55,824 nt of DNA from the sequence record MT446402.1; one strand, given 5' to 3'. The DNA is from Escherichia virus TH28. Under the pieces are notes generated by a model that was not told the origin of the DNA, ran no database searches, and saw nothing but the letters and a program-made list of their open reading frames with translations. Below are positions 54 through 55,824 of the stretch, piece by piece; position 1 is the stretch's first letter, and every line of letters starts with the position of its first letter. A program made the translations under genes and the position numbers.

Positions 54-56
54 TTA

Positions 57-988: not shown

Positions 989-1323
989 TGCAAATAACGT
1001 TGACCGTACACGGTTGACATGAAATCAGCTTCGATATATGGAATAGTCGAAATGATTCGGTCGCTGAACTCTACCTGTACATCGTCCACATCGGTACGAC
1101 TTACAGGCATAGCTGGCATTGCGGCATCACCAGGCATTATGTCGTCAATTGTTGAAGACCAATGCGCGACAAGTGATGCCATAGCTGGGTCATAAAACCC
1201 ACACCAACGCGATTCGATTGTACCCATCACAAGTTTTGCATCTTCAACTAAGATATCAAAACGACCTTGGGTCATGTCAGCCATAGCCGGATAACGTTTC
1301 ACCAAATCGGTCAGTGTAATCAT
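934..1323 (-). CDS. head-tail connector region protein (copy A)
   Basis: 129-aa ORF; paralogue at 53005..53394. Confidence 0.4.
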   Translation of the reverse strand: MITLTDLVKRYPAMADMTQGRFDILVEDAKLVMGTIESRWCGFYDPAMASLVAHWSSTIDDIMPGDAAMPAMPVSRTDVDDVQVEFSDRIISTIPYIEADFMSTVYGQRYLQWRRMAFAGPRLSPGFQF

Positions 1324-1763
1324 TATGCCAACTTATCGTAGAGAGCCAGTTTAACATCTTCCGGCATACCCTTGACGTCAACCCCATTCTTAACAAGGAT
1401 AGCATCAATATCAGGCATACCAACTTTCACGCGTTCAACAATGGAAAGAGAGCCAGCTTTGATTGCTTCTTTGACCAGGTTGACTTTACGAGTTTTACCA
1501 GTGCTGTAATACTCCTTGATGACCAGAGCTTCTTTACCAGTCTTAACAGAAGCGCCGATATTCTCGTCATCAAGCTGAACTACTTCTTCGCGCAGTTCTT
1601 CAACTTCCGTCATGGACTCCGTAAGAGACTTGTAAACTTCATCGTCGATTTCTACAGTTGCGCCACCAGGAACATGAATAAAGTCCAGCTCAGATTTGCC
1701 AGACTTCCCTTTCTTATAGAAGAAGAATTGAAGGTTGCGGGATTCGTTGTTCTTAATCTGCAT
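1323..1763 (-). CDS. head-tail connector region protein (copy A)
   Basis: 146-aa ORF; paralogue at 53395..53835 with many substitutions. Confidence 0.4.
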   Translation of the reverse strand: MQIKNNESRNLQFFFYKKGKSGKSELDFIHVPGGATVEIDDEVYKSLTESMTEVEELREEVVQLDDENIGASVKTGKEALVIKEYYSTGKTRKVNLVKEAIKAGSLSIVERVKVGMPDIDAILVKNGVDVKGMPEDVKLALYDKLA

Positions 1764-1810
1764 TACTATTTCTCTTAAGTTGTGGGCGAGAATAGTCCCG
1801 CCCTGTTTTA

Positions 1811-2818
1811 TTAGATGCCGGAGTTGATGGAGATTGCTGCCGGGTACATCGTTTGGAAGCCAGCGAAACGACCACGGCCAGGTACTTCATAAATCAGGCC
1901 ATGAAGCTGTACTGGTTGCCAGGTCAGCGGCAGAGGCTCACGCAGACGGAAAGTACGGTTGCCCATTGCGTTGCGGCAAACAACTACGAAGCAATCAGAA
2001 CCAGCATTGCCATGACCTTTGATTGCGTTCAGACCCTTGATTTTGTCGCGGGAGTTGATGAACTGGTTGTTGGCAATGAAGAACTGACCAATCGTCTTAT
2101 CAGACTGTTCAGAACGTGCGGTGTTGAAGATGTACTGCTCATGCTCAACAGGCATCCAGATTTCATCAGGGCGCATGATTTTCAGAGTAGAGGCATACAT
2201 TGCAGACACAGCAGCAGTCAGGTCGGCGATAACTTCGGTCGGAGTCTTCTCGGTCCACTTAGTAGAACCGCCAGCACCCTGAGCAACAGTTGCTTTGGTA
2301 ATGTCTGGGTTTTCGAAGAAGCCAACGAAGCCGTTAGCCTGGTCGCCGTACCATGCAGCAGAGTTTACATACTGCTCGTAACCACGAATCGCAGCATTTG
2401 CTTTACGAGTTTCCAGCGGCAGACCAGTTACAGCAGCAGATGCAACTTCGTCAATGTCGTAGTCGAATGCAGTACCAACAGACTTAACTGTTACGCTGTA
2501 TTCTTTACCAGAAATGCTAGACTTAGGCAGGTCAGTTGCACGGGCGTTAATCACCTGAGCTTTACCAACATGGTTGTAAGAACGGTAGGTCAGAGTGTTT
2601 ACGCCAGCACCGCCAGTGGTGTCCACGCCGAAAGCAGCACGCGCTTCCAGTTCAGGGTACAGGGTGTCGTAAGTTTGAGCTTCAATGAACTCAAGCTGGC
2701 GTTGAAAGAATACTGCGTCGTCATCGTTCAGGACAACAGTGCCAGAATCCTGGATACGAGTGATGGCGTCGTTCAGTTCAAATTCAGAACCGTCAGCCAG
2801 TTTAATCATCTTAGGCAT
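1811..2818 (-). CDS. major capsid protein (copy A)
   Basis: 335-aa ORF downstream of portal, protease/scaffold and decoration genes; size fits an HK97-fold capsid protein; paralogue at 53879..54886. Confidence 0.55.
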   Translation of the reverse strand: MPKMIKLADGSEFELNDAITRIQDSGTVVLNDDDAVFFQRQLEFIEAQTYDTLYPELEARAAFGVDTTGGAGVNTLTYRSYNHVGKAQVINARATDLPKSSISGKEYSVTVKSVGTAFDYDIDEVASAAVTGLPLETRKANAAIRGYEQYVNSAAWYGDQANGFVGFFENPDITKATVAQGAGGSTKWTEKTPTEVIADLTAAVSAMYASTLKIMRPDEIWMPVEHEQYIFNTARSEQSDKTIGQFFIANNQFINSRDKIKGLNAIKGHGNAGSDCFVVVCRNAMGNRTFRLREPLPLTWQPVQLHGLIYEVPGRGRFAGFQTMYPAAISINSGI

Positions 2819-2858
2819 TGTGATGTAATTCCATTATGTTGGCATATTGCCATTAAAT

Positions 2859-3203
2859 TTATGCTGTCCACACTTTAGACAGAGATGTACCTGCAACAGA
2901 CGTCCCGTAGGAGTCCTCAATTGTGCAGTTTACAGAGAAAGTTTTGCCAACCTGGTCGGCTGGAGTGGTTCCAGTAATGTGGGCGCGATTTACCGCGTCA
3001 TTTACCAGAGATAACCCACCAGCCCCTTCGGTTTCCATAGCAAACTTATAAATATAACTTCCATCATCTGCTTCTACCACTGCGGCAGGGTCAGTACGGA
3101 TGTAAAAGTCTACAGCTTCACCAGCAGTCAGTACAGCACCGATAGTGTTGCTCCACCCGCTTGTACCATTTGCAGAGTATTGCGTCTGACCGACGGAAGT
3201 CAA
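2859..3203 (-). CDS. Ig-like (Big_2-type) domain protein, probable capsid decoration (copy A)
   Basis: 114-aa Thr/Val/Ala/Gly-rich beta-type sequence between decoration and capsid genes; counterpart 54931..55182 has a different sequence. Confidence 0.4.
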   Translation of the reverse strand: MTSVGQTQYSANGTSGWSNTIGAVLTAGEAVDFYIRTDPAAVVEADDGSYIYKFAMETEGAGGLSLVNDAVNRAHITGTTPADQVGKTFSVNCTIEDSYGTSVAGTSLSKVWTA

Positions 3204-3220
3204 TTTAGCCTTCGGTGTGG

Positions 3221-3691
3221 TTACGCCTTTGGGAGTACGTTAATCATTACTGGAACAACATCACCAGCAGCCGCCGGATAGCGAAGTGCAGTCAGGTTTG
3301 TAGCAGCAGTGTAGGTGCCATCAACGCCACCAAATTGACCAGTGGCAGATACGCCAATGTTCTTGTCAGTGATTGCAGTAACCAGTTTAACCATGATTGG
3401 GCCAGACAGCATACGCCCAGAGGCCAGCCAGCTTTGATTGCAACAGTGCCGTCACCAGGACGGTTGCGATTCGATGTTAATCTGGCGCATAGTAATGCCC
3501 AGAACAGTGCCGTCGGCTTCAATACCAGGCTTAACCTGATTAGAAGCAGTACCCTGAACAACAGCTAAACCAAAGTTAGCCATTTCAGCTTCAGCATTGA
3601 AAGTCAGGCGCTGAGAGTTAGTGGTAGCCAGGCCATATTGCTCACCCGCATATGCTGCACCAGTATTAATAGACCAATCTTGCTTTGGCAT
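3221..3691 (-). pseudogene. head decoration-like protein, disrupted copy (copy A)
   Basis: Intact 157-aa homologue at 55224..55697; here a 2-nt and a 1-nt deletion relative to copy B create an out-of-frame stretch with an in-frame TGA at 3452-3454. Confidence 0.5.
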
Positions 3692-3700
3692 TGTCTTACC

Positions 3701-4942
3701 TTATAAAGAGTTGAAGCGTTCTAAACGACGTTTGTTAGCTTCTTCGGAAATAGAAACTTTAGGCTTACGAGCTTCTGAATCTTTCTTAGCAGAGAATTGC
3801 ATAGATTGGTTCAGTGCATCGCCCAAAGTAATGGAATCACAATCTTCAAGTGCTGCATCGAAACGAGCAGAGATATAATCTTCACTCTTATCGCTGAAAT
3901 CCTTGTCATGCAATTTATTAACTACAGCCAACTTAACTTCTGAATCGGACTTGCCGGAGAAATCAAGACTGGAGAATTCGTCGCCAAGACGGGCCACATC
4001 AATGAGAAGTGCTGTACGAGCAACAACACGTTTGTCTACCTCAGCCTGAATGGCTTCATCGGATAGTCGTGCAGTTTCTGCATCAGCAAGTTTCTGCTCA
4101 AGGGTGCTAATCTTGTCAAGCGCCGCATCACGCTCTGCTTCAACAACATCAAAGGTTGCCTTATCGACAATGGAAATCTCTTCACCAGAGTCACCAATGC
4201 GAGTAGTCTGAGCACGACCACGAACAACAATTGCAGCATGGTTAGGGATAATACGAACTTTGTCGAAGTCTGCATCGGCATCTTCTGCAACAGCCAGTTC
4301 TGCATTATGCCCCAGGGAGATTTGGTCAACGCCAGAATCAACTAATCGAATGGCTTGCTCGTCATTCAAAACGATTGATGCAGCCAAGAAAGAACCGTCT
4401 GCAATTGGACGACCTTCGATGAACCCTTTCTGGAGTTCTTTGTTGTTCTTGATATTGACGTCATCTTTTGGATGGCCGATAGTAACCGGAATTGAGCGAC
4501 AACCTTCGATGGTTGCTTCATCAAATAATACTTCCGGTTTGGTGCGAACACGGCAAACAGATTCTGGGTCTAGATGTTTTGCAATCTCACCAAGTTCTTT
4601 CGCTTTGTACAGCATAATGCCAGTACGAGCAATGGTGCATTCTGCAATCATTTCGCCAGAGTCGCGTAAACGACGGGTCGTCAGAGTAGCCTTGTCGGTT
4701 AACAAAACTACTTCATTCACAGTATCTTCGTCGTTAAGCTGGACCAGGTTTTGGCTTTGCTTCACTTGCGTTACCCTTTTGGATGTTAGGAGGTTTAGGA
4801 TTTGGCTTACCAAGGTCACAAGTTCCGAACACGCCCGAATGGAACATGACTTCATTTGCAACTTGCGTAGTAATGGTGCCGTTGTTAACCAGTAGGTCAA
4901 CAGCAAATGCCAAATCTTTAGCTCGCTTCGCTTTCTCAACAT
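3701..4942 (-). CDS. prohead protease / scaffold-like protein (true start probably near 4740)
   Basis: Acidic, helix-rich 413-aa ORF directly after portal; position typical of protease-scaffold fusions; overlaps portal ORF so an internal start is likely. Confidence 0.45.
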   Translation of the reverse strand: MLRKRSELKIWHLLLTYWLTTAPLLRKLQMKSCSIRACSELVTLVSQILNLLTSKRVTQVKQSQNLVQLNDEDTVNEVVLLTDKATLTTRRLRDSGEMIAECTIARTGIMLYKAKELGEIAKHLDPESVCRVRTKPEVLFDEATIEGCRSIPVTIGHPKDDVNIKNNKELQKGFIEGRPIADGSFLAASIVLNDEQAIRLVDSGVDQISLGHNAELAVAEDADADFDKVRIIPNHAAIVVRGRAQTTRIGDSGEEISIVDKATFDVVEAERDAALDKISTLEQKLADAETARLSDEAIQAEVDKRVVARTALLIDVARLGDEFSSLDFSGKSDSEVKLAVVNKLHDKDFSDKSEDYISARFDAALEDCDSITLGDALNQSMQFSAKKDSEARKPKVSISEEANKRRLERFNSL

Positions 4943-6263: not shown

Positions 6264-8309
6264 TTACATCCATGCCGAGTAGTTGGCACTTGGGCCGGAG
6301 AATTCGATTGCAACCATATCTGAAACGTTATCGACACAATCGTCGTGTCCAGTACCACTACCCAAAGAAGTGAATCCAAGTATTTCACGTCTAACGTGGT
6401 CAATGTGTTCATGACCAGCAGGGAAGAATATCCTCTTTTGAGAGAAATATGGGATTGCGTTAAGGAATCGAGTTACCTTGTCATTACCGTTAATGCCATC
6501 GCGAGGCAGTGGTAAGACTCGGACACTCCCATCTCTAATAAATTGTTGGTTCAAGAACTGTCCAGCAGACTTATCTTCCATGTACAAAGCACGAGGAATG
6601 CAGCCTACATATTTCAAATCCAACTTATTGCATTTATTCCAGAAGTCGATAATAGCAGTCTTGAGTTCTGGAGTTTCAAACTTACCGAGCATGATATCTA
6701 AACAATAAACATCACGCTCTTTAGTCACGCCCCAATGCTTAAGGACCGAATAGTCAGAATAAGACTTGGCAGTAGATGCCGTGTCAGCAGTAATGAAACT
6801 TCTAACTATGCGACTTCTGTCGAAAGCGTCTGGCTCATACTCTTGCCACCAATCTTCTTTAACAAGGCCATGACCTTGGGCAGACGGGTCGCCAGCATAC
6901 TGTGAGTTGTATGTGTATGGGTTGGACTCCTTCATTGCCTCCAAAGATTCTAAACTCTTACGTGAGGGCCACAATGCAGACTTCTCTTCTTTCCTGTTCA
7001 AATCATAGAGAATAGGGATAGCATGAGTGTAGTTCTGCTTCTTAATTAATTTGTCGTACCACTGAGCACTGCCAACACCTTTCTCAATAATCGCTGGGAT
7101 GTTGAGATAATGATATTTATCAGAGGAACCACCACGGAGTATATAGCCAACTAAATCTTGGTCATGAACTCGCTGCATGATGATAACCATTGGAGTACGA
7201 GAGCACTTAATTTGGTTTCCACGAGAATCGGTTATGCACCCATCATTGGCAAGACGGGACATAAAGGTGTTATCAAAGCGGTCGTTGATTTCTGCTCGAA
7301 CTGTGTCAGAGTAGGCATCCTTAGGTTTGATAACGTCATCCACCACAAAGCAACCAGAGTAGTTTGCAACAAGAAGTCCAGCACCTTTACCAGTTAATTT
7401 ACCACCAGTAGGTACTGCGTGCATAACTCCAGCTTTGGTCGTACCCCAGCGTTCAAGGGAACGTTTGTTGGGGTCGATTCTCACCTTTGGGAATATGCGT
7501 TGGAATAGTGGGTCCAGCATTACTGCGCGGATGTAACCGCTCGATTCCAATACAACGTCTTCTGCATAGGAGGTGATGATGTTGTGGCTTGATTCATTGT
7601 GGCAAAATGAATACAGTGGTAGTGCAATACTCATAAGCTGAGTCTTGGAATGTCGTGGTGGAATGGTGACAATTAGTCGGTCAATCTCACCGTCAACAAC
7701 TTTCTGACCTACTTTGAATATTACATCGTGAAAGTCTTGAGACTGGAATGGGAATCCCATTTGAATATGGAACTGCCATTTACCAAATGCTTCAAAACTC
7801 TTCATCAAAACTTTACGGACTTGTTCTGCAACCTTGGCTGGGATTACAGATGGGTCAACGTTGTGTGGGTCATAAAGGATTTTATCGACAAGCTCTTGAG
7901 TATTGTCGTGTTCAGAAGTTGGCTCTTCTAAAGTCGAACCAGCTACACGGTCTGATACCCCAGCTTGGATTCCTTTCTTCAACTCGTCGGCATACGCAGT
8001 TGAATCTTTCTTATCGCCAGAGCGAAGGCGCTCAAGTTGTGCTCGGAAAACGGAACGCAACACAGCATCGTTTTCCAGACCCTGGCCTTCTAACTCTGCT
8101 TGAATTTGTTCTTCATAGCTGTCAACTATCGCAGAGTTTTCTGAAATATATCGACGGAGCAATGGCAAAGATAGAATGCAGAATCTTTCTCTTGAGACTT
8201 TTAATACGTCACCGTAGTGTTTGGCAAGATACGAGGCTACTGTATCATTAAACTCCGGTCCGAGGTCATCAGTCTTTGACATTGATTCGTTCTCTTTGGT
8301 TTTAATCAC
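6264..8309 (-). CDS. terL: terminase large subunit
   Basis: 681 aa; Walker A-like PRHSKT, Walker B-like VVDD, C-terminal acidic nuclease motifs (ADTA, GHDD). Confidence 0.8.
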   Translation of the reverse strand: MIKTKENESMSKTDDLGPEFNDTVASYLAKHYGDVLKVSRERFCILSLPLLRRYISENSAIVDSYEEQIQAELEGQGLENDAVLRSVFRAQLERLRSGDKKDSTAYADELKKGIQAGVSDRVAGSTLEEPTSEHDNTQELVDKILYDPHNVDPSVIPAKVAEQVRKVLMKSFEAFGKWQFHIQMGFPFQSQDFHDVIFKVGQKVVDGEIDRLIVTIPPRHSKTQLMSIALPLYSFCHNESSHNIITSYAEDVVLESSGYIRAVMLDPLFQRIFPKVRIDPNKRSLERWGTTKAGVMHAVPTGGKLTGKGAGLLVANYSGCFVVDDVIKPKDAYSDTVRAEINDRFDNTFMSRLANDGCITDSRGNQIKCSRTPMVIIMQRVHDQDLVGYILRGGSSDKYHYLNIPAIIEKGVGSAQWYDKLIKKQNYTHAIPILYDLNRKEEKSALWPSRKSLESLEAMKESNPYTYNSQYAGDPSAQGHGLVKEDWWQEYEPDAFDRSRIVRSFITADTASTAKSYSDYSVLKHWGVTKERDVYCLDIMLGKFETPELKTAIIDFWNKCNKLDLKYVGCIPRALYMEDKSAGQFLNQQFIRDGSVRVLPLPRDGINGNDKVTRFLNAIPYFSQKRIFFPAGHEHIDHVRREILGFTSLGSGTGHDDCVDNVSDMVAIEFSGPSANYSAWM

Positions 8310-13222: not shown

Positions 13223-13442
13223 TGTCCAGGTCGGACAGGATAGATTGTGTTACTGCGAAATCTTCCGATTCCTTTAATGCTTTCAGGGCACTTTCGTAGG
13301 TGATATCGCCCTGATAATCACTTCCAAATAATGCCGAGGCGTGCATCTCAATTGCAGACACCGCCAGTTGTGTGGACGGAATATCTCCAGCCGCTTGATG
13401 GAGTTCCATCTGTTGTTTGTCGTACAAGGCTAAAACACGCAT
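13197..13442 (-). CDS. hypothetical protein
   Basis: 81-aa ORF between DNA polymerase and 12323..13222. Confidence 0.35.
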   Translation of the reverse strand: MRVLALYDKQQMELHQAAGDIPSTQLAVSAIEMHASALFGSDYQGDITYESALKALKESEDFAVTQSILSDLDIDSHIIEI

Positions 13443-19379: not shown

Positions 19380-19622
19380 TTAGATGGCGCACGCACCACT
19401 TGAACAGTCGTTATCACCAGCACCAGGAACGATTGCTTCTTCGTCCTGCTTCTTCTTGAGTTCTTCGATTGCTTCTTCGGCAGCACCGAAGTCTAGGTTA
19501 TCAAGTGCATCAAAATCCATGAGGACTCCAGTATTGCGGTTATTGGAATGATTGCCAATGTAAGAGTCGAACTTACATAACACCCCGTCGAGTGTCGTCT
19601 TCCCATTTAGACGAATTGGCAT
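19380..19622 (-). CDS. hypothetical acidic protein (internal start of ORF 19380..19658)
   Basis: Annotated ORF start would overlap the tRNA-like element; Met at 19622 avoids overlap. Confidence 0.35.
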   Translation of the reverse strand: MPIRLNGKTTLDGVLCKFDSYIGNHSNNRNTGVLMDFDALDNLDFGAAEEAIEELKKKQDEEAIVPGAGDNDCSSGACAI

Positions 19623-21007: not shown

Positions 21008-21024
21008 TTCACATCCAATTAATG
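21008..21024 (-). promoter_or_regulatory. conserved 17-bp motif (minus strand CATTAATTGGATGTGAA)
   Basis: One of 7 copies of CATTAGTTGGATGTGAA-like motif in gene orientation; 77 nt upstream of 20931 start. Confidence 0.45.
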
Positions 21025-22964: not shown

Positions 22965-22981
22965 TTCAATTCCAACTAATG
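22965..22981 (-). promoter_or_regulatory. conserved 17-bp motif copy
   Basis: Plus strand TTCAATTCCAACTAATG; part of a roughly 20-bp direct repeat with 23105-23121. Confidence 0.4.
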
Positions 22982-23104: not shown

Positions 23105-23121
23105 ATCAAATCCCACTAATG
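23105..23121 (-). promoter_or_regulatory. conserved 17-bp motif copy
   Basis: Plus strand ATCAAATCCCACTAATG, directly downstream of the plus-strand sigma70-like promoter. Confidence 0.4.
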
Positions 23122-27026: not shown

Positions 27027-27043
27027 CTCACATCCAACTAATG
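27027..27043 (-). promoter_or_regulatory. conserved 17-bp motif copy
   Basis: Plus strand CTCACATCCAACTAATG; 73 nt upstream of 26954 start. Confidence 0.45.
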
Positions 27044-29761: not shown

Positions 29762-29980
29762 TTAAACTGAAATTGGCTCTTGAACTAAATCAGAAGCTGA
29801 GATTTCTTTAAACTCTTCTTCTGTAAAAGTTCTCTCATTGTCATTTAATAAAACACCAATGTTAGAATCACCAACGAACACAGCATTTACATTAATGTCA
29901 TCTTCCAAAACCTTTTGCAGATGTTCCCCACCACGCGTGAAGAAGATTGCACCATCTTCCAAATCTTTAAAACGAGTCAT
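29762..29980 (-). CDS. hypothetical protein
   Basis: 72-aa acidic ORF, first gene after the repeat region. Confidence 0.4.
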   Translation of the reverse strand: MTRFKDLEDGAIFFTRGGEHLQKVLEDDINVNAVFVGDSNIGVLLNDNERTFTEEEFKEISASDLVQEPISV

Positions 29981-30270
29981 TTTATTCTCCTAAGTTAAAA
30001 GAAAACTCCCGTCATAACGATTGTGGAGGTCTTGTATTACCTTAATCCACCTTAAAGAATCAGGGAGTTATATAGTATTCCTGTGTGTGCCGCCATCATG
30101 GACTTCCTAGTCTGGTGGGCGCGTTGCAATCCAGCAATAAACCACACGTTTTTCACAGGCTATATATGTGACACACAAAGTGTCTAAAAACTACAATGAT
30201 TAGCTTGGAGACATAATCTCTCTAAAATCTGTCACACAATTTCAGCAGAATTCACAGAGATTTGGTCTTA

Positions 30271-30287
30271 TTCACATACAACTAATG
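30271..30287 (-). promoter_or_regulatory. conserved 17-bp motif copy
   Basis: Plus strand TTCACATACAACTAATG. Confidence 0.4.
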
Positions 30288-30339
30288 ATAAATGAACATG
30301 CTTAATTGCAACTAACTCATCTGCCAAATAGACGAATTT

Positions 30340-31164
30340 TGTCACAATTAAACATGCGTCATTAATTACAGGTTTACTCCCACCTTGAATGTATTTGGCA
30401 CATTAAGATTGGAGCAAGCAGGTACGGAAAACCGACCATGTACAGCATAATAAAACTAATTAAATAAAGGGTTTTATCCCAATATTGTCACAATATTTAC
30501 ATGCGATGATAAAGCCTTCGCTTGGCTGGAAGCCAGTATTCATGCGGGTTGCAAGAATATTGGGTCAATACTGATACAGCTATTACATGTGAAATTGGCA
30601 CAAATACTGTTACAAAATTAACATGCCGGATTGGTAGACAATTGTATCTTCGAGGTGATTAGTCCTCTAACAATTCTGCCACATTCTAACATGCCAATTT
30701 GTAGCAATATTTACATGCCATACTGTGACGCAATTGTCACAATATTTGTTGCTCAAAATCGGGGCGGGCTACGGGATTAGTTTCGCGGCTTTGCTCCGAC
30801 TCTTCTCTTCTTTCGAATTAAGATAGAAAGAAAGAAGCATGTCCAAAAGTTCCAGTCTTGCCAAAGTTATCTCCCGGCTTGTGGGTGGGCCTTTATAATA
30901 GGAGATGGAGCAATATTGTCGCAATTGAACATGCTTTAGTTGAAGAACAGTTTCGAATGATAATCCTACTTCACACATGGTTGCTGGAACTTTGTCTGGC
31001 CAAAGACAGGGAGTTCAATGATTGCCACATCATTACAACGCTGTGTGTTTAGTTGACATGCTGAAATGTTTCTAGAATGATTTCAACATGACATGCGGAA
31101 TACTTCTCCGTATTCTGTTACTTCACATCCAACTAATGTCGAATATTGAAACAATATTACATGC
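30340..31164. repeat. array of at least 8 same-orientation copies of a roughly 20-bp motif (plus strand ATTGTCACAATATTTACATGC)
   Basis: Copies at 30340-30357, 30484-30504, 30608-30626, 30677-30694, 30700-30718, 30733-30752, 30915-30934, 31150-31164 plus partial copies; irregular spacing; immediately downstream of RNAP gene. Confidence 0.7.
31122..31138 (-). promoter_or_regulatory. conserved 17-bp motif copy
   Basis: Plus strand TTCACATCCAACTAATG. Confidence 0.4.
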
Positions 31165-31200
31165 AGCAATATTGCTTGAATATTGGGAATTAAAGGATTT

Positions 31201-31247
31201 AATTAATAAAGAATAAAGAAAGGGCCATCACCTTTCGATGACAGCCC
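31201..31247 (-). terminator. putative intrinsic terminator after RNAP gene
   Basis: Minus-strand hairpin AGGGCTGTCATCGAAAGGTGATGGCCCT followed by U-rich TTCTTTATTCTTTATT; RNAP stop at 31256. Confidence 0.5.
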
Positions 31248-31255
31248 TGTTTCTC

Positions 31256-33370
31256 TTATTGACAGAAGTAGTAAGCGTGTTCGCTCATCAGAAGCTCTTC
31301 GGTTACGATGTTCTCATGATACATCTGAATGCCACCAAGTTGCTTAGACAGATTCTCGAATTGATTGTTGGTTACGAAGATTTCAACATATGCTGCACGA
31401 ATAACTTCCATCATTTTAGGAGCATCAGCTAAGCAGCAACGGAAACAATCATGGATTGAAGTAAAGCCACGAAGACCAGCTTCTTTAGCTTTGACTGCAA
31501 CAGTACGAGCAACCAATGCGTCAATACCTTGAATGTAGTTAACAACGAAGGTACGTTTGAATTCCTCTTTAGTTGGATTGGACTCACGAATGGTCCAAGG
31601 CTTATTCTCCTGAATCTGACCAAAGATGACACGAGTTTGAGAGTCAACACGAATGCTGAATGCATCACAAACATCACGAGATGGGAAGCAAGGTTTCATT
31701 ACAACTTGACCATCAGTGTGCTTATATGTGATGTACTCTTTGTTGAGTTCAACACAACGAGCAAATGCAGCATCAGCAGCTTTCTCGATGAACATGTTAA
31801 TCTTAGCACCCAATGCGTTATGGATTGCTTCAACACAAAGTTCAGCAAATGCTTCGGCTTTCTCCATAGGAATCTGGAGAGCTTCTGTCATGTATGCGGT
31901 GAAATCAGAAGAACCAGTCAATGCAGCTTTACCACCACCATATTGGATAGCCATGTATGGAGTTTTGATAAACTTACGACCAGCTTTCGGATTCAAGAAT
32001 TCATCCATAATTTCAGCGGATGGTTTCATTGAAGAACGGTCAAGCAACTTCAACAGTTCACGAAGAGATAACTGGTATGGGTCAGATGCTTTAGTCTCAG
32101 AATCAACCAGACCTGTAGCACGAGCCATTTCCATGTTACCAGCAATGAATGCCAAGTATTGGGTACCAGAACATTTAGCATCTAAGCCAAAGCCTACACG
32201 AGAATCACACTCACCTGTAGTCTCAAACTTGAACCAATCCAGAGCCAGACGAACATAAGTGAATGGCTTAGAAGGACGCTCACCTTTAGGCATGTTCAGC
32301 ATACGAGCCAAAGAACCAGCAGGATTCTGTGCAACATAAGTTAAACGTTTTGCAGAAGTCCAGTCTCCACCAGCAATATCTTCCAGCTCAAGCATGAACA
32401 TGTTGTATGCCAGAGTTGTTGAGCCATCATCATTAAACTTGCTCACAGTGTTCTCAACATTGTGGGAATACAGGCAACGAGCAAAGTCGGATGATTGTGG
32501 GTTAGGACCAGCACATGCTACATGATACAAACGACCACGGTTATCAGCAAAGTAGTCAGAGAACAGAGTGTCCTGCCCAACCATTGCTACAGCATTGTTC
32601 CAAACATGGAGTTCAGTCTGGATTGCTTCTGGCATCTGTAAGCCACCAAAGGTACGTTGTTCTAACATGGAAGAGATAACCTTAACCATTGTTGCATCAA
32701 CGTGATATTCAGTATCTTGCAGGAATTCGATTGCAGCTTTCAGAGTCTTGGATGGCTTAACTTTGCCACCTTTAACGAAAGGCTTGCGACGAGATTCAGT
32801 TGTTACACGCTCAGTGAATGGAACTGAGGTATCTTTGGTTGTAACCAGCTCAACCCATGCATCAGTCATCTGGAACGATTTGTCCTCGTTCATGGTGATG
32901 AAACCGAAGTGCTTAGCTAAACCAATGAGGTTGATAGCTGGGTCAACATAGTGCATTGCTTTCAGGTCGTTGTTATAACGGTTGGCATCAGCAATAGAAG
33001 CAGAAGCCAGCTCGACCATTGCAATGGCTGGGACAACATCATCACGAGTGAATGACGTCATCATCTTGAAGATTGCAAGAGCAGCAATAGCACAGGTCTG
33101 AGGCTGCATGTAATTCTGTTTCTCTTTGGCACGGTATACCAGAGCCGTGATAGCAGGGACAACGGATTTGATAGTTTGAGTTGAGATAGTTGTCATTTTG
33201 CGAGTCTCCAAGTTAGTTTCGGTTTTAGTTTCGGATTGTGTAGCAGCAGTGATTTCGTCAACCATTTGGTTGCAACGGTCCATCGTATCAAGCACGTCTT
33301 TCCAACCGTGGCCTTCTTCTTTTAAGCGAGCGCCATCAGCAGCCAGTGCGCGATATTCTTCGTTAGTCAT
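31256..33370 (-). CDS. single-subunit DNA-dependent RNA polymerase (T7-like)
   Basis: Motifs DNRGRLY, DAKCSGTQY (motif A), RKFIKTPYMAIQYGGG (motif B), IHDCF (motif C) match T7 RNAP; 704 aa. Confidence 0.85.
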   Translation of the reverse strand: MTNEEYRALAADGARLKEEGHGWKDVLDTMDRCNQMVDEITAATQSETKTETNLETRKMTTISTQTIKSVVPAITALVYRAKEKQNYMQPQTCAIAALAIFKMMTSFTRDDVVPAIAMVELASASIADANRYNNDLKAMHYVDPAINLIGLAKHFGFITMNEDKSFQMTDAWVELVTTKDTSVPFTERVTTESRRKPFVKGGKVKPSKTLKAAIEFLQDTEYHVDATMVKVISSMLEQRTFGGLQMPEAIQTELHVWNNAVAMVGQDTLFSDYFADNRGRLYHVACAGPNPQSSDFARCLYSHNVENTVSKFNDDGSTTLAYNMFMLELEDIAGGDWTSAKRLTYVAQNPAGSLARMLNMPKGERPSKPFTYVRLALDWFKFETTGECDSRVGFGLDAKCSGTQYLAFIAGNMEMARATGLVDSETKASDPYQLSLRELLKLLDRSSMKPSAEIMDEFLNPKAGRKFIKTPYMAIQYGGGKAALTGSSDFTAYMTEALQIPMEKAEAFAELCVEAIHNALGAKINMFIEKAADAAFARCVELNKEYITYKHTDGQVVMKPCFPSRDVCDAFSIRVDSQTRVIFGQIQENKPWTIRESNPTKEEFKRTFVVNYIQGIDALVARTVAVKAKEAGLRGFTSIHDCFRCCLADAPKMMEVIRAAYVEIFVTNNQFENLSKQLGGIQMYHENIVTEELLMSEHAYYFCQ

Positions 33371-33432
33371 GATAAGTCTCCAATTGATTATGATTTAACT
33401 GAAACGGATTAGACTTGCGTAGCCTATTCATA

Positions 33433-33449
33433 ATCACAACCAACTAATG
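33433..33449 (-). promoter_or_regulatory. conserved 17-bp motif copy
   Basis: Plus strand ATCACAACCAACTAATG; 63 nt upstream of RNAP start. Confidence 0.45.
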
Positions 33450-33499
33450 GTAAGGCTAGCTCGTTACAACAGCGTGCTCTGATTGCCTTTGACCTTGAC

Positions 33500-33960
33500 C
33501 CACTACCTAACTTGGTGTTGATTGAAAGCCGATAGGCTATAGGAAAAAGTTGGGGTAGGGACCGTATTTAAGTCCGATAGGACGTTGGGCTTCCCCTCCT
33601 CGGAGATAAAATTTTAAAAATAATAATGACACAACTTCCCCCCCCCCCCGCCACCTCAAAAATAAAATAATATCGCCACAATTCTAGTCTCATTAATATT
33701 GAAACAATTCGAGTCTCATTAATTCCGTAGCAATATTTAAATTAAAAAAAAAAAAATTATATAAAATTTTTATAACATAGTCGGGCTTCTGTTCGAACAA
33801 ATTTCGGCTAGATACAGCTGACCGATTGTGAACGAGTCTATGTCCAGATACAGTTGACCGATCATTTACCATTTGGTTTGAACTTTACGCATTCCTAATA
33901 TTACTTTAAATATTGTAGCAATATTGGGAATAAGTAATATTGAAAACTTACTTATTTTAT
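33500..33960. other. repeat- and homopolymer-rich intergenic region (candidate genome end, origin or packaging region)
   Basis: C12 at 33638-33649, A13 at 33744-33756, direct repeats CAGATACAG(C/T)TGACCGAT at 33811 and 33844, AGTCTCATTAAT at 33687 and 33711, CAATATT-type motifs. Confidence 0.45.
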
Positions 33961-34043
33961 TCTAGCTCAAAGAGAAACGACGCTAACGCATCGAATCTCT
34001 TCTCACATATTAACTGACAAACGTCAGCCTTCACCATACCCAA

Positions 34044-35162
34044 TCATAATTCAAATCCACCTAGAGCATCAGTATCAACTTCGGAGTCAATTTGCCCGAC
34101 CAGATAGGAACTAATCTCCGTTTCCTGTGGAGCAACCTGTACAGCATCCGAATTCAACCATGCGTTAATCCACGGAATCGGGTTAGTTGCACCTTTGAAT
34201 GGAGCATCTAATCCAACTGCTTGCATACGAATATTCGTGATATATTCCACATACCCGCACAGAATTTGCTTGTTTAAGCCAATCATGGAGCCATCTTTGA
34301 ACAGATAATCGGCCCAATCTTTCTCTTGTTGAGCAGCATCTTCGAACAATTTCTGGCACTCTTCACGGCATTCTTGGGCAATTTCACCCATTTCTGGGTC
34401 ATCTTTACCACTCGCAAGAATATTCAACATGTGCTGAGTTCCGGTCAAATGGAGTGCTTCATCTCGTGCAATCAGTCGAATAATCTTGGCATTTCCTTCC
34501 ATTAACTTGCGTTCAGCGAAGGCAAATGAGCAAGCAAAACTAACATAGAAGCGAATTGCTTCAAGTGCGTTGATAGACATGAGGCATAAATAGAGCTTCC
34601 TCTTCAACTCACGAAGACTAATTTCATGACCAGCATGGTTCCCTTCTCCGAACAATTGCCATAATGCAGTGAGTTGTTGAAGCTCGTCATAATATTGGGA
34701 GATGCCAATTGCTCGTGCTTTGATATGCTCGTTAGTTACAATTTCATCAAAGATAATGCTTGGGTCTGTAACGATGTTTCGAATAATGTGGGTGTAAGAA
34801 CGTGAATGGATAGTCTCGGAGAAAGACCAAGTTTCAATCCAAGTTTCAAGCTCAGGAATGCTCACGATTGGGAGCAAAACTGTGTTAGGTCCACGTCCCT
34901 GAATGGAGTCCAGAAGGATTTGATAGCGCAAATTACTGGTGAAAATGTGCTGTTCGTTTGGTGGAAGCTTCTGGTAATCAATGCGGTCTTGTGAAACATC
35001 TACCTCTTCCGGTCTCCAGAAGAATGACAATTGTTTCTCAATCAACTTCTCGAATATGCCATACTTCTGTTGGTCATAGCGAGCAACGTTGACGTTCTGA
35101 CCAAAGAACATTGGTTCTAATAGTTGGTTATTCTTGGTTTGTGAAAAGGTAGTGTAAGACAT
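34044..35162 (-). CDS. nrdB: ribonucleotide reductase class Ia small subunit
   Basis: Long blocks matching enterobacterial NrdB as I recall it ([52 protein letters not shown]). Confidence 0.9.
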
Positions 35163-50676: not shown

Positions 50677-52125
50677 TTACTGAATGAAGTTGCCAGAGAT
50701 TACAGCACCCTGGATTGCACCGGAACCGATAGCAATAAAGGAAGTACCTTCCCAAATACGTTCACCCTTCTGCGACTGCAAGAGTTCTAACGGAGTAGAA
50801 ATAACTTTGTAGCCTTCTGGATAGAAGACGCCTTCGTTATCATAGCCAGGGGCAATGAGGCCGTTAGTCTTAGCGAGTTCGAGCGCCAGGGTTACTTGCT
50901 GGTTAACCATTGCTACACCAGTGTCCGTCCAAGGAATCTTGGTAGTGGAGGTGTAGAACAAGTTGAACACGTTCAGTCGAACTTTCTGAGTCAGCCATTC
51001 AACACCTTGTACGGAGTCGAACCATGTGCCGTCAGCCATACGACCGTTGTAGAACATTACGTTGCCAGCAACAGAAATGAATGCGTTACCACCACAAGAA
51101 AGCAGCGCACTTACCTGCCCAGAAGACAGGTCAGCAGTGGCGATACCTGGACCTTTCTTGTATGCCAGAATAAGAACAGAGTTTGCAACGTTAAAGTTAA
51201 CAGTTGATGCACGACCCAGGATAGAAATTTCCGGATATTCATCACCATTCGCAGAAGCATCGTAAACACACAGAGTGTTACGCAGGTTCTGGTTCTTAGC
51301 ACGACGGAAGCTGTTATCAGTGCCGTTGATAAGAATGTTCTTGTCGTTATCACCCCAGCCAAATACTTTGCTGGATGCTTCACACCACTTCGCCACAGAC
51401 ATTTGGTTGTCTACTGGAGAGGTTTTGCCACGATACTGGCGGTCAAGGCCCACATAGAAGAAGTTGAATGGAGCATCTGCAATATTAGACAAGTCGGAAG
51501 AAATGGATAGCTCGTTCTTACCAGCAACAATAACTGCGCTGTCAGAAGATTGCAGTTTCAGTACTTCACCAACTTTACCACCAACGTTGCTGATAGTTGC
51601 GTTGATGCCAGTTGCAGAAGTGGTCAGCTTGAACTTGCCAGCTTCCTGAGTAACAGTTACGCCAGCACCAACAGAAGATAGTGCAGTAGTTACTAGAGTT
51701 GCAACTTCTTCGAAGTCAGCAGCAGCAGAGAAATCAATCGGGTCAGTAACATACTGAACACCGCTAACACTTAACTGCATGGTTGCAGCAGTTTCCAGCT
51801 TAATGGTTGCCAATACAGCAGCAGTTGCAGCAGTAACAGTGGCAGGAGTTGCTGGAGTCAAAGTATCGTACTTGATAGCACCAACCAGGAAAGTCTTCGG
51901 AGTTGGCTTCTGCGAGTACCAAGAGGTAGCAGCTTTAGCAATCTCACCACCAGGGAAGTCTGCGAGAACTTCTTTCAAACTGGTATAGGAACGAACCGGA
52001 TATACATCAACGGTCGGTACAAACTCTTTGCTCATAAAGAGCAATGGCCCAAAACCATCGGTCGCAATGGCGTTCGGGGAGATTGCGATATCAACCTGAA
52101 CTAAATCAGAAATTGGGATTGACAT
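50677..52125 (-). CDS. tail sheath protein
   Basis: 482 aa immediately upstream of tube gene; size and position fit Mu/P2-type sheath. Confidence 0.5.
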   Translation of the reverse strand: MSIPISDLVQVDIAISPNAIATDGFGPLLFMSKEFVPTVDVYPVRSYTSLKEVLADFPGGEIAKAATSWYSQKPTPKTFLVGAIKYDTLTPATPATVTAATAAVLATIKLETAATMQLSVSGVQYVTDPIDFSAAADFEEVATLVTTALSSVGAGVTVTQEAGKFKLTTSATGINATISNVGGKVGEVLKLQSSDSAVIVAGKNELSISSDLSNIADAPFNFFYVGLDRQYRGKTSPVDNQMSVAKWCEASSKVFGWGDNDKNILINGTDNSFRRAKNQNLRNTLCVYDASANGDEYPEISILGRASTVNFNVANSVLILAYKKGPGIATADLSSGQVSALLSCGGNAFISVAGNVMFYNGRMADGTWFDSVQGVEWLTQKVRLNVFNLFYTSTTKIPWTDTGVAMVNQQVTLALELAKTNGLIAPGYDNEGVFYPEGYKVISTPLELLQSQKGERIWEGTSFIAIGSGAIQGAVISGNFIQ

Positions 52126-52127
52126 TA

Positions 52128-52646
52128 TTAAACCTTTTTGGTTGTGATAAGTGTATTACCATCATAGAAGTTGCCACCAACATATGCGCCAGACATGACT
52201 CCGATAGGACTCAAATCTTCACGAATAACATTGAATTGCATTTTAACCGCTTGGCGAACTTCCCAATTGGTTTCCATTTGTATGGTGGCAAGATTTAAAG
52301 GTTCTTTACCAAGAGCAGCAAACTTCTCCTGCTTCAATTTGGCTTGAACATCGGGACGGTAAAACGAATTATCAAACTTGATAAATTCATCACCCTCACG
52401 AGAAAACATTATTGCAAATGTCAGAATACGAACACCACGAGTACGGAATATCTCTTCGCCATTAATGGTTACTATTCTGTTCTCGTCAAAACCTGGGTTG
52501 GTGCTTGATAAACATTTGATTGCAGCATACTCACCATGGGGTCGGGGAGCGTTAATCTGCATGTTGTATGTAAATTGTGGGATGCCCACACATACATCTA
52601 CAATCTCTTTCATGGATTGTAGTTCTTCAAGTCTAATATCCATCAC
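52128..52646 (-). CDS. head-tail joining / tail completion protein (copy B)
   Basis: 172 aa; 2 substitutions relative to 57..575. Confidence 0.45.
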   Translation of the reverse strand: MMDIRLEELQSMKEIVDVCVGIPQFTYNMQINAPRPHGEYAAIKCLSSTNPGFDENRIVTINGEEIFRTRGVRILTFAIMFSREGDEFIKFDNSFYRPDVQAKLKQEKFAALGKEPLNLATIQMETNWEVRQAVKMQFNVIREDLSPIGVMSGAYVGGNFYDGNTLITTKKV

Positions 52647-53059
52647 TTCTCCAGTACGCGAGCGGCAATCACGGAGAAGAACCCAGCATCTTCATAATCG
52701 TTTATTGCTATAACTTTATACTGAATGCCGTAAACAGTGATAATGGATTTCATAGGCATCTTAGTACGACTATGAATCTTCATGAATGCTGGCTGACGTT
52801 CGCCAACATCAGTCGCTTTAAGCTGTTGACCAGCTACACCTGAATCCCTGTCTCCATATGCAATGGGAGTACAGCGGAACTTCTTCGGAGGTGCCCAGGA
52901 ATCTTCCACCCAGTTATTAAGATTGTCGTAATAACCTTCTATATAAACTGCAATGGTGGGTCGGTTTGTGGTTGTGTATCTGTTAAATGCTCGACGTTGA
53001 TTTATCACATCTGCCACCCTGGAGAAATTCGAGGGCCAGCAAAAGCCATACGTCGCCAT
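52643..53059 (-). CDS. head-tail connector region protein (copy B)
   Basis: 138 aa; paralogue of 572..988. Confidence 0.4.
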   Translation of the reverse strand: MATYGFCWPSNFSRVADVINQRRAFNRYTTTNRPTIAVYIEGYYDNLNNWVEDSWAPPKKFRCTPIAYGDRDSGVAGQQLKATDVGERQPAFMKIHSRTKMPMKSIITVYGIQYKVIAINDYEDAGFFSVIAARVLEK

Positions 53060-53394
53060 TGCAAATAACGTTGCCCATAAACGGTAGACATGAGGTCAGC
53101 TTCAACATAGGGAATTGTTGAAATGATTCGGTCGCTAAACTCTACCTGCACATCGTCAACATCTGTACGACTTACAGGTATAGATGGCATAGCAGCATCC
53201 CCAGGCAGTAGGTCGTCAATTGTTGAAGACCAATGCGCAATAAGGGATGCCATTGCTGGGTCATAAAACCCACACCAACGCGATTCGATTGTTCCCATCA
53301 TCAGTTTTGCATCTTCAACTAAGATTTCAAAACGGTCTTGGGTCATGTCAGCCATTGCAGGATAACGTTTAACCAAATCGGTTAGTGTTATCAT
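53005..53394 (-). CDS. head-tail connector region protein (copy B)
   Basis: 129 aa; paralogue of 934..1323. Confidence 0.4.
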   Translation of the reverse strand: MITLTDLVKRYPAMADMTQDRFEILVEDAKLMMGTIESRWCGFYDPAMASLIAHWSSTIDDLLPGDAAMPSIPVSRTDVDDVQVEFSDRIISTIPYVEADLMSTVYGQRYLQWRRMAFAGPRISPGWQM

Positions 53395-53835
53395 TTACGC
53401 CAACTTATCGTAGAGGGCCAGTTTAGCTTCTTCCGGCATATCTTTGATGTTCACGCCGTTAGCAACCAACACTTTATCAATGTCAGGCATACCAACTTTC
53501 ACGCGTTCAACAATAGACAGACTGCCAGCTTTGATAGCTTCTTTGACCAGGTTTACTTTACGAGTTTTACCCGTGGTGTAATATTCCTTAATCACGAGTG
53601 CTTCTTTGCCAGACTTAACGTCAGCACCAATGTTGGAGTCGTCCAGCTTAACTTCTTCTTCACGCATCACTTCAACTTCAGTGACAGAAGAGGTAATTGC
53701 TTTATACACTTCATCATCAATTTCAACAGTTGCACCGCCAGGAATGTGTACAAAATCCAGTACAGGTTTGCCAGATTTATCCTTCTTATAGAAGAAGAAT
53801 TGGAGGTTGCGAGTTTCGTTGTTCTTAAGCTGCAT
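53395..53835 (-). CDS. head-tail connector region protein (copy B)
   Basis: 146 aa; paralogue of 1323..1763. Confidence 0.4.
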   Translation of the reverse strand: MQLKNNETRNLQFFFYKKDKSGKPVLDFVHIPGGATVEIDDEVYKAITSSVTEVEVMREEEVKLDDSNIGADVKSGKEALVIKEYYTTGKTRKVNLVKEAIKAGSLSIVERVKVGMPDIDKVLVANGVNIKDMPEEAKLALYDKLA

Positions 53836-53878
53836 TACATTTCTCTTAAATTAGGCGAGATTTCTCCCGCCATCTGGG

Positions 53879-54886
53879 TTAAATACCGGAGTTGATGGAG
53901 ATTGCTGCCGGGTACATTGCCTGGAAGCCAGCGAAACGGCCACGACCAGGTACTTCATAAACCAGACCATGCAGCTGAACTGGTTGCCAAGTTAACGGCA
54001 GCGGTTCACGCAGACGGAAGGTGCGGTTGCCCATAGCTTCACGGCACACAACTACGAAGCAATCTGCGCCAGAAGCACCGTGACCTTTGATTGCATTAAG
54101 GCCCTTGATTTTGTCACGGGAATTAATGAACTGGTTGTTGTCAATGAAGAACTGACCGATAGTCTTATCAGACTGCTCAGAACGTGCGGTGTTGAAGATG
54201 TACTGCTCATGCTCAACAGGCATCCAGATTTCAGAAGGACGCATGATTTTCAGAGTAGATGCGTACATTGCAGACACAGCAGTGGTCAGGTCAGCAATAA
54301 CTTCGGTCGGAGTCTTCTCGTTCCACTTGGTAGAACTGCCAGCGCCCTGAGCAACAGTTGCTTTGGTAACGTCTGGGTTTTCGAAGAAGCCAACAAAGCC
54401 GTTAGCCTGGTCGCCGTACCATGCAGCGGAGTTTACATACTGCTCGTAACCACGAATCGCAGCATTTGCTTTACGAGTTTCCAGCGGCAGACCAGTTACA
54501 GCAGCAGATGCAACTTCGTCAATGTCATAGTCGAATGCAGTACCAACAGACTTAACTGTTACGCTGTATTCTTTACCAGAAATGCTGGACTTCGGCAGGT
54601 CGGTTGCACGGGCGTTGATTACCTGAGCTTTACCAACATGGTTGTATGAACGGTAGGTCAGCGTGTTAACACCAGCGCCGCCAGTAGTATCAACACCGAA
54701 AGCAGCACGAGCTTCCAGTTCAGGATACAGGGTGTCGTAAGTTTGAGCTTCAATGAACTCAAGCTGACGTTGAAAGAACACTGCGTCGTCGTCATTCAAA
54801 ACAACGGTGCCAGAGTCCTGGATACGGGTGATGGCATCATTCAGTTCAAATTCAGAACCGTCGGCCAGTTTAATCATCTTTGGCAT
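53879..54886 (-). CDS. major capsid protein (copy B)
   Basis: 335 aa; paralogue of 1811..2818 with few substitutions. Confidence 0.55.
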   Translation of the reverse strand: MPKMIKLADGSEFELNDAITRIQDSGTVVLNDDDAVFFQRQLEFIEAQTYDTLYPELEARAAFGVDTTGGAGVNTLTYRSYNHVGKAQVINARATDLPKSSISGKEYSVTVKSVGTAFDYDIDEVASAAVTGLPLETRKANAAIRGYEQYVNSAAWYGDQANGFVGFFENPDVTKATVAQGAGSSTKWNEKTPTEVIADLTTAVSAMYASTLKIMRPSEIWMPVEHEQYIFNTARSEQSDKTIGQFFIDNNQFINSRDKIKGLNAIKGHGASGADCFVVVCREAMGNRTFRLREPLPLTWQPVQLHGLVYEVPGRGRFAGFQAMYPAAISINSGI

Positions 54887-54930
54887 TAAATTTATTCCAT
54901 TAGGCGCAGATTATTCTACGCCAATTAAAC

Positions 54931-55182
54931 TTAAGGATGCGTAATGGTGATTGCTTTAGTAGCAGTTACACCAGGAGCAGTCTTATGAGTTGCTTTGATT
55001 GTTGCAGAAGTCGCAGTACCAATCGTCGCAGTTGCAACAGTTACAGTACCATTGGCCGCCACAGTTACTCCAGTGACCGCTGGGTCAACAGTGAAGTTGT
55101 AGTCACTTGCAACAGAGTTTGCAAACGTAAACAGTTTATCAACAGTTACGGTAGCATTTACAGTTGAAGCATCAGCAGTCAC
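54931..55182 (-). CDS. Ig-like (Big_2-type) domain protein (copy B, different sequence from copy A)
   Basis: 83 aa, Thr/Val/Ala-rich beta-strand repeats (VTVAANGTVTVATATIGTAT). Confidence 0.4.
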   Translation of the reverse strand: MTADASTVNATVTVDKLFTFANSVASDYNFTVDPAVTGVTVAANGTVTVATATIGTATSATIKATHKTAPGVTATKAITITHP

Positions 55183-55223
55183 AGCCGCCGCTACCGCAGT
55201 AACGGTCGGTGCTGGAGGTGGCG

Positions 55224-55697
55224 TTACGACTTTGGGACTACGTTAATCATGACCGGAACAACATCACCAGCAGCAGCCGGATAGCGAAGTGCAGTCAGGT
55301 TGGTTGCCTTAGTATAGCCAGCGCCAACACCACCAAATTGACCAGTGGCAGACACGCCAATGTTCTTGTCAGTGATTGCAGTAACCAGTTTAACCATGAT
55401 TGGGCCAGACAGCATAACGCCCAGAGGCCAGCCAGCTTTGATTGCAACAGTGCCGTCACCAGGACGAGTTGCGGATTCGATGTTAATCTGGCGCATAGTA
55501 ATGCCCAGAACAGTGCCGTCGGCTTCAATACCAGGCTTAACCTGATTAGAAGCAGTACCCTGAACAACAGCTAAACCAAAGTTAGCCATTTCAGCTTCAG
55601 CATTGAAAGTCAGGCGCTGAGAGTTAGTGGTAGCCAGGCCATATTGCTCACCCGCATATGCTGCACCAGTATTAATAGACCAATCTTGCTTTGGCAT
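55224..55697 (-). CDS. head decoration-like protein (copy B, intact)
   Basis: 157-aa ORF; intact version of the split gene at 3221..3691. Confidence 0.45.
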   Translation of the reverse strand: MPKQDWSINTGAAYAGEQYGLATTNSQRLTFNAEAEMANFGLAVVQGTASNQVKPGIEADGTVLGITMRQINIESATRPGDGTVAIKAGWPLGVMLSGPIMVKLVTAITDKNIGVSATGQFGGVGAGYTKATNLTALRYPAAAGDVVPVMINVVPKS

Positions 55698-55706
55698 TGT
55701 CTTACC

Positions 55707-55824
55707 TTATAAAGAGTTGAAGCGTTCTAAACGACGTTTGTTAGCTTCTTCGGAAATAGAAACTTTAGGCTTACGAGCTTCTGAATCTTTCTTAGCAGAG
55801 AATTGCATAGATTGGTTCAGTGCA
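55707..55824 (-). CDS. prohead protease / scaffold-like protein, C-terminal fragment cut by window edge (copy B)
   Basis: 55697-55824 is identical to 3691-3818, which covers the 3' end of ORF 3701..4942. Confidence 0.4.
   Translation of the reverse strand, partial: ALNQSMQFSAKKDSEARKPKVSISEEANKRRLERFNSL

Follow-up and report, generated by a model that had tools for sequence, protein, structure and literature searches.

A family-conserved sequence core at the predicted genome terminus of Escherichia virus TH28

The non-coding gap between nrdB and the single-subunit RNA polymerase (RNAP) gene of Escherichia virus TH28 is very probably the concatemer-junction or terminal region of a Carltongylesvirus genome. 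By sequence homology, virion DNA is predicted to start within the gap, at 33571-33576 on the minus strand. The predicted start falls in a core of ~80 bp (33598-33519) that is conserved throughout the family Chaseviridae. That terminal repeats begin before the RNAP gene is already textbook for Chaseviridae, and the family picture is unchanged.

Results

The window analysed is the entire 55,824-nt stretch of the Escherichia virus TH28 record MT446402.1, and all of its long ORFs lie on the minus strand, the gene strand. The 6.2 kb around the gap are 99.9% identical to Escherichia virus TH33 and 86-93% identical to the classified Carltongylesvirus members MLP1, flopper, ST32, SA91KD and Mangalitsa. 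Judged by these identities, the window is a Carltongylesvirus (Chaseviridae) genome; together with the Pfam hits of RNAP and nrdB, they place TH28 in the family and genus of phages with the Chaseviridae terminal repeat. The gap extends from the stop of nrdB at 34044 (ribonucleotide reductase small chain, 372 aa; 34044-35162, minus strand) to the ATG of the RNAP gene at 33370 (704 aa; 31256-33370, minus strand). It measures 673 bp (33371-34043) rather than the 640 bp given in the original prediction, in which nrdB was also labelled the last late gene, a loose but harmless description. The sequence elements named in that prediction are all real, with some coordinates off by 1-3 nt. All elements of the gap except the segment with the C12 run are conserved in relatives and are therefore more than chance occurrences. 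The gap contains no tRNA, and a comparison of 29900-34200 with Rfam gave no match at E<=1. Elsewhere in the window, ARAGORN reported a tRNA-like gene with an undetermined anticodon ('tRNA-???') at 19552-19621 on the minus strand; tRNA-Arg or tRNA-Leu has been reported in some relatives (PMC8762354).

According to the ICTV profile (PMC12842549), Chaseviridae have linear genomes that are terminally redundant and not permuted, and their terminal repeats measure ~3 kb. Reported repeat lengths in the family range from 2.6 to 3.2 kb (PMC12842549, PMC6753284, PMC8762354). For Mangalitsa, a repeat of 3,234 bp was determined by PhageTerm, and the record was opened with RNAP as the first gene (PMC6753284). 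The left end of TH28 was placed by alignment to the five relatives, from four genera, whose direct terminal repeats (DTRs) are defined, either by PhageTerm (Mangalitsa and 4HA13) or because the record contains both ends (JL1, Y2 and PM1). When the end of the Mangalitsa record is joined to its start and aligned, its first base lies opposite window position 33571 (...CCTATCGGAC/TTAAATACGG, the slash marking the boundary). The PhageTerm repeat start of 4HA13, which belongs to a different genus from Mangalitsa, falls in the identical alignment column. The two identical repeat copies of JL1 (2,995 bp) start 5 nt earlier than that of Mangalitsa (window 33576), and the repeats of Y2 (2,608 bp) and PM1 (2,665 bp), of which both copies are in the record, start 3 nt earlier (window 33574). 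One further isolate record, the sixth, begins in the Y2 register.

The left boundaries of the five relatives thus lie within 5 nt of each other at window 33571-33576, ~200 nt upstream of the RNAP ATG, and the predicted first base of TH28 virion DNA, on the minus strand, is homologous to them. Its context on the gene strand is ...GTCC-TATC-GGAC/TTA-AATACGGTCCCT. The end in TH28 is placed by homology. The original prediction named the gap as a candidate physical genome end or packaging signal, and homology supports it, for the DTR left boundaries of all five relatives fall inside the proposed interval, at the family-wide peak of conservation. The three boundary registers differ by 3-5 nt, which counts against the terminal reading. 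Headful (pac) packaging with circular permutation, which the authors of phiEcoM-GJ1 originally proposed (as cited in PMC8762354), appears not to apply, as records obtained independently from four genera share one fixed left end and the ICTV profile describes the genomes as non-permuted (PMC12842549).

The right boundaries of Mangalitsa, JL1, 4HA13, Y2 and PM1 fall at one homologous purine-rich site. In TH28 the homologous site, at ~30802 (...GAAAGAAGAGAAG/AGTCGGAG), lies within the 2.3-3.2 kb downstream of the left boundary in which a right boundary was sought. The predicted DTR (30802-33571, minus strand) is therefore ~2,770 bp long and holds the RNAP gene (33370-31256). The CC-TATC-GG dyad described below is absent from the right boundary, which also counts against the terminal reading. 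The outer flanks of the left and right boundaries were also compared as possible inverted copies of a single composite element ([ATTGTNNCAATATT]-G-rich-[TCSGAC]). This idea was rejected, as local alignment stayed within the shuffle range (z <= 2.9); in either orientation the sole match was the near-palindromic CAATATT motif.

The predicted right boundary is contained in a non-coding array at 30300-31200, downstream of the RNAP gene. Phage-promoter-like motifs at 31122 and 30271 flank this array, which includes eight AATATTG-N3-CAATATT palindromes and ~10 copies of GCATGT (ACATGC on the plus strand).

A conservation profile was computed over 13 relatives. A search of IMG/VR with the RNAP protein yielded 12 loci, enough for a conservation profile and too few for within-genus statistics. 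Identity over most of the gap is 80-100% in the genus and 25-50% in other genera. It rises to 98% in the genus and 78% in other genera at 33598-33579, and to 100% and 90%, respectively, at 33578-33559, so that the peak coincides exactly with the mapped end. Within the core, 3-8 nt inside the repeat, lies the invariant block AATACGGTCCCT (33557-33568, minus strand), and every family locus examined that covers the position has an exact copy of the 10-mer AATACGGTCC. A composite pattern matches 19 stretches from 15 viral contigs. The core, taken as 101 nt, is present in 71 phage records, each of them from a Chaseviridae host or lineage, and it is unannotated in nearly all of them.

The core contains two dyads. 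Repeated CGATAGG words had been noticed in the gap; they are real and, alone among the features of the original prediction, bracket the terminus. On the gene strand these words are the cores of the two dyads. Copies of the word CCGATAGG start at 33529 and 33574; a genome length has only one more on that strand. Dyad 1 (GTCC-TATC-GGAC; 33572-33583, minus strand) has the left DTR boundary in, or at the end of, its right arm, and dyad 2 (AGCC-TATC-GGCT; 33527-33538, minus strand) lies 45 nt inside the repeat. In 16 family members the CC-TATC-GG core is almost invariant, with TGTC in two, and the outer arm positions are compensated (GTCC/GGAC, TCCC/GGGA, AGCC/GGCT, ACC/GGT and AAGTCC/GGACTT). The outer arm pair of dyad 2 covaries among A-T, T-A and G-C. 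Over 18 distinct site sequences, 87.8% of dyad cells were paired, versus 66.8% in shuffles, and none of 500 shuffles was as high; the covariation score was 0.528, versus 0.128 in shuffles, and slid registers all scored far lower. These statistics are supportive and do not amount to a probability, because the sequences are related. Folding energy alone does not support a hairpin or cruciform at the terminus, as the single-strand DNA fold of 33610-33500 was no better than shuffles (z = -0.9). Because of this result, the covariation of the dyads cannot be assigned to structure in preference to a dimeric protein; a site for a dimeric protein is as likely as an extruded structure.

Upstream of the core on the gene strand, the gap opens with an intrinsic terminator after nrdB, detected by scan (33978-33993, minus strand; stem-loop CGATGCGTTAGCGTCG followed by TTTCTCTTT), which is 99-100% conserved within the genus (bins 33998-33959). 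It is followed by a cluster of AATATT words (33895-33945) that contains the perfect 17-bp palindrome AATATTGTAGCAATATT at 33909-33925. The cluster is 92-99% conserved in the genus, and its palindrome family recurs at 30481-31184. Of the 42 copies of AATATT per genome, 16 lie in 30481-31179 and 33695-33936. The palindrome AATATTG-N3-CAATATT has 20 matches at <=3 mismatches, where 4.8 are expected, and 12 of them are in the same two regions. The original prediction that CAATATT-type motifs are common to the gap and the array at 30.3-31.2 kb was therefore well founded.

Two further sets of repeats lie between the palindromes and the core. The pair AGATACAG(C/T)TGACCGAT, predicted on the plus strand, exists and is identical at 16 of 17 positions, although the starts were 1-2 nt off and the spacing is 36 rather than 33 nt. 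On the minus strand it reads ATCGGTCA(A/G)CTGTATCT, at 33862-33846 and 33826-33810, separated by a variable spacer of 19 nt. The 17-nt repeat has three matches in the window at <=3 mismatches, versus 0.37 expected, and no other close copies; among relatives the repeats are conserved and the spacer is variable. An 18-nt insert forming a hairpin with a UUCG loop (TCTCCTTCGGAGAAG[G/T]T) follows the first 17-nt copy in SA91KD (window ~33845) and the second in JL1 (window ~33810), indicating that this element has landed after either copy. The second set is a 26-nt tandem repeat (33668-33719, minus strand) whose units, 33668-33693 and 33694-33719, are 85% identical. The predicted pair AGTCTCATTAAT is part of it, with starts at 33686 and 33712 in place of 33687 and 33711. 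TH28 has two such units and relatives have three or four, each with a degenerate AATATTG-N3-CAATATT site. Apart from the boundary dyads, the repeats of the gap are conserved DNA motifs.

The C12 run (33638-33649) and the A13 run (33744-33756) are exactly where they were predicted to be. The former, G12 on the gene strand, lies in the upstream copy of a lineage-specific duplication of ~50 nt (33595-33681, minus strand; unit TTGTGNCNATATTATTTT..GAGG..GGGG) that was recognised by repeat analysis and alignment. Other relatives lack this duplication, which is the least conserved part of the gap, with 10-16% identity in the genus and 25-26% in other genera at 33678-33639. The latter, T13 on the gene strand, lies inside an AT-rich tract (~33735-33780) and occupies a position at which all genus relatives have a T-run, of 10 nt in TH33 and TH23 and 7-10 nt in others. 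The G12 run has 11 nt in TH33 and 9-10 nt in TH23. When the gap of TH28 is compared with that of TH33 and with both of the overlapping ends in the TH23 record, run lengths are the only differences, in agreement with the suggestion that the homopolymers are slippage hotspots; slippage, whether in the phage or during sequencing, would account for the differences, which also fit the absence of any conserved length. Both runs lie outside the predicted repeat, G12 at 67-78 nt and T13 at 173-185 nt from the end. The features most stressed in the original prediction, namely the two homopolymers and the direct-repeat pairs, are thus not at the end but ~70-290 nt outside the repeat.

Discussion

It is possible, though tentative, that the core, with its two covarying N4-5/TATC/N'4-5 dyads and the invariant AATACGGTCCCT, is a signal for terminase recognition and cleavage that is common to the whole of Chaseviridae, has not been described before and is cut inside the right arm of dyad 1. 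No description of the boundary motif was found in the searchable literature, in which a search for the motif string gave unrelated papers only, and the paper on ST32 does not mention termini or promoters. The sequences show homology of position, conservation and covariation of the arms; cleavage, its agent and duplication of the repeat are inferred from what is generally known of T7-type terminal repeats. On the gene strand, the order of elements is the nrdB terminator, a genus-conserved non-coding segment (operator-like palindromes, the two 17-nt repeats, the poly-T/AT-rich tract and the 26-nt tandem units), the lineage-specific duplication with G12, and the core. During packaging, the terminase or an associated nuclease would recognise the core in replicative concatemers and cut in the right arm of dyad 1. 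The repeat would then be regenerated by nicking and nick-primed strand-displacement synthesis, as proposed for T7-type terminal repeats. The C12 and A13 runs are no part of the signal. For the genus-specific motifs upstream, possible roles are those of promoters or operators, of an origin, or of accessory elements in packaging.

TH28 appears to resemble T7 and T3 (Autographiviridae), whose linear genomes end in exact direct terminal repeats, encode a single-subunit RNAP, are transcribed in one direction and have repeated motifs in a non-coding junction next to the repeat. However, the terminal repeat of T7 is non-coding and 160 bp long, whereas that predicted for TH28 is ~2.8 kb long and holds the RNAP gene; the two share no sequence similarity, and no T7-type pause signal (ATCTGTT) was identified in TH28. 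Unlike T7, TH28 is a myovirus, and the terminase is reported to resemble T1-like enzymes (PMC8762354). The closer comparison is with the DTRs of Chaseviridae (Mangalitsa, 3,234 bp; JL1, 2,995 bp, both in the same genus as TH28; 4HA13, 3,120 bp; PM1, 2,665 bp; vB_EamM-Y2, 2,608 bp), which share with TH28 the homologous left boundary, RNAP as the first gene inside and a right boundary at the homologous purine-rich site. TH28 lacks two small ORFs downstream of RNAP, which makes its predicted repeat shorter, at ~2,770 bp, and it differs from these relatives in having the ~50-nt duplication with G12 just outside the boundary.

With the conserved motif ...CCTATCGG/AC/TT/AAATACGGTCCCT, sequence alone suffices to locate the ends and the terminal repeat in any genome of the Cleopatravirinae, and most of the 71 public records with the core open the genome at arbitrary points. 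Two covarying dyads and an invariant 12-mer also provide a mutable target for asking how a 3-kb repeat is cut and duplicated in a myovirus whose transcription is T7-like.

The gap could also be an early regulatory region, a reading that is rather unlikely but that could coexist with a terminus. The 26-nt units would serve as host sigma-70 promoters, and the AATATTG-N3-CAATATT palindromes as operators for a phage or host regulator controlling transcription of RNAP. The palindromes are 4-fold enriched and confined to both flanks of the RNAP gene, and a TATAAT-like element followed by a T-rich tract is found at the equivalent place in Y2 and PM1. The record of phiEcoM-GJ1 (EF460875) annotates the last 26-nt unit (TTGACG-18-TATTAT) as a putative sigma-70 promoter, and phage promoters homologous to CATTAGTTGGATGTGAA of TH28 as well; these annotations are sequence predictions only. 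The homologous unit of TH28 has a weaker -35 element (TTAATG-18-TATTAT, ~8/12 overall). A consensus scan (>=9/12 matches, 16-18 nt spacing) reported no sigma-70 promoter on the gene strand of 33371-34043, and 29.9-34.1 kb contains eight promoter-like matches, versus 10.1 in shuffles. The ICTV states that promoters of the family have not been identified (PMC12842549). Moreover, the units lie outside the repeat, so that the RNAP gene within their reach would be the right-hand copy alone, or that of a circular or concatemeric form. In favour of the regulatory reading, inspection by eye of the stretch from the terminus to the RNAP ATG gave no convincing sigma-70 promoter but only a phage-promoter-like motif. 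As a further consequence of the terminase-signal reading, early expression of RNAP would depend on the right-hand copy or a joined (circular or concatemeric) form, because the sigma-70-like units lie only outside the repeat and the RNAP gene inside it is preceded only by a motif of the phage type.

A replication origin in the gap is very doubtful. The 26-nt repeats would act as iterons, and the paired 17-nt repeats would flank an AT-rich unwinding tract (33735-33780). Direct repeats and a poly-T/AT-rich stretch are indeed present and conserved in the genus, and the copy number of the repeats varies from two to four among relatives. However, no initiator gene is adjacent, there is no inflection of GC skew here, and the motifs are not conserved outside the genus. 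The primary origin of T7 lies after gene 1, behind tandem phage promoters. By analogy, the array at 30300-31200 downstream of the RNAP gene would be a better candidate than the gap for an origin or for early promoters.

Placement of the left end at the core conflicts with the published ends of PYps23T (MW147598), for which a repeat of 2,339 bp was obtained from restriction digests, ligation-PCR and run-off or direct sequencing of virion DNA (PMC8762354). A left end of this type would lie at ~33442 in window coordinates, 130 nt further in and inside the phage-promoter-like motif, and the core would have another role, for example in binding terminase away from the cut. That TH28 has such an end is highly improbable. 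The PYps23T mapping is experimental and was made on virion DNA, and the record has identical copies of 2,339 bp at both ends. However, both published boundaries directly follow the same 10-mer, ATTAGTTGGA, in two copies of the promoter-like motif, and for this reason the junction cannot be placed uniquely. It may have arisen by template switching or recombination between the motif copies, that is, as a mapping artefact; the mapping is ambiguous and not disproved. The published boundaries lie 140 nt and 327 nt inside the family-consensus boundaries, which would give a repeat of ~2,806 bp, and the restriction estimate of ~2.5 kb decides neither for 2.34 kb nor for the consensus-based ~2.81 kb (PMC8762354). 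Five other genomes, from four genera, place the end at the core. The core motif thereby flags the end-mapping of PYps23T as possibly confounded by a repeated motif.

That the gap encodes small proteins, with its repeats reflecting a repeated peptide, (V/I)GQLYL, is extremely unlikely: a 31-codon ORF (MIGQLYLD...SPTML) is open with an equal stop position in all seven genus members examined, and the 18-nt insertion of JL1 is in frame, but the ATG has no Shine-Dalgarno sequence in front of it, the stretch is open in a second frame as well, the three codon positions have 9, 8 and 10 variable sites with mostly non-synonymous changes, and records annotate different frames and lengths (40 aa in flopper, 45 aa in Mangalitsa, 66 aa in PYps23T, and others). 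The ORF, which spans the 17-nt repeats, was judged non-coding on its substitutions, which have no codon-position bias; the repeats therefore probably act as DNA or RNA motifs.

The phage-promoter-like motif is itself widespread in the genome. CATTAGTTGGATGTGAA has nine copies in the window, all on the gene strand, versus 0.2 expected by chance, at 33433-33449, 31122-31138, 30271-30287, 27027-27043, 23105-23121, 22965-22981, 21008-21024, 13317-13333 and 6613-6629 (all minus strand). The first of these (CATTAGTTGGTTGTGAT) is 63 nt upstream of the RNAP ATG. Records of phiEcoM-GJ1 and SA91KD label the motif a 'putative phage promoter'; the ICTV profile lists promoters of the family as unidentified (PMC12842549).

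The ends of the window, 1-3760 and 52073-55824, are homologous, and the stretch exceeds one genome length of ~52,072 bp. Identity between the two ends ranges from 57% to 100% per 250 nt; they are not identical. This pattern suggests less a clean wrap-around than an assembly in which two related chaseviruses have been concatenated or joined as a chimera.

The leader of the RNAP gene (33399-33440, minus strand) contains the family-wide conserved sequence GGCTACGC...AATCCGTTTCA. It can form a small hairpin with some compensatory changes (3/8 pairs), and the window has a longer stem as well, in which the promoter-like motif pairs with the stretch just ahead of the ribosome-binding site (RNA fold z = -2.7). 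The RNAP proteins fall into two classes, one of 704 aa starting with MTNEEY (TH28, Mangalitsa and JL1) and the other of 646-648 aa starting with MTTIT (GJ1, PYps23T and flopper). The classes differ in the first 55-67 residues and in the adjacent leader (window 33170-33370 and 33440-33480), a pattern suggesting that mosaic modules meet at the 5' end of the RNAP gene.
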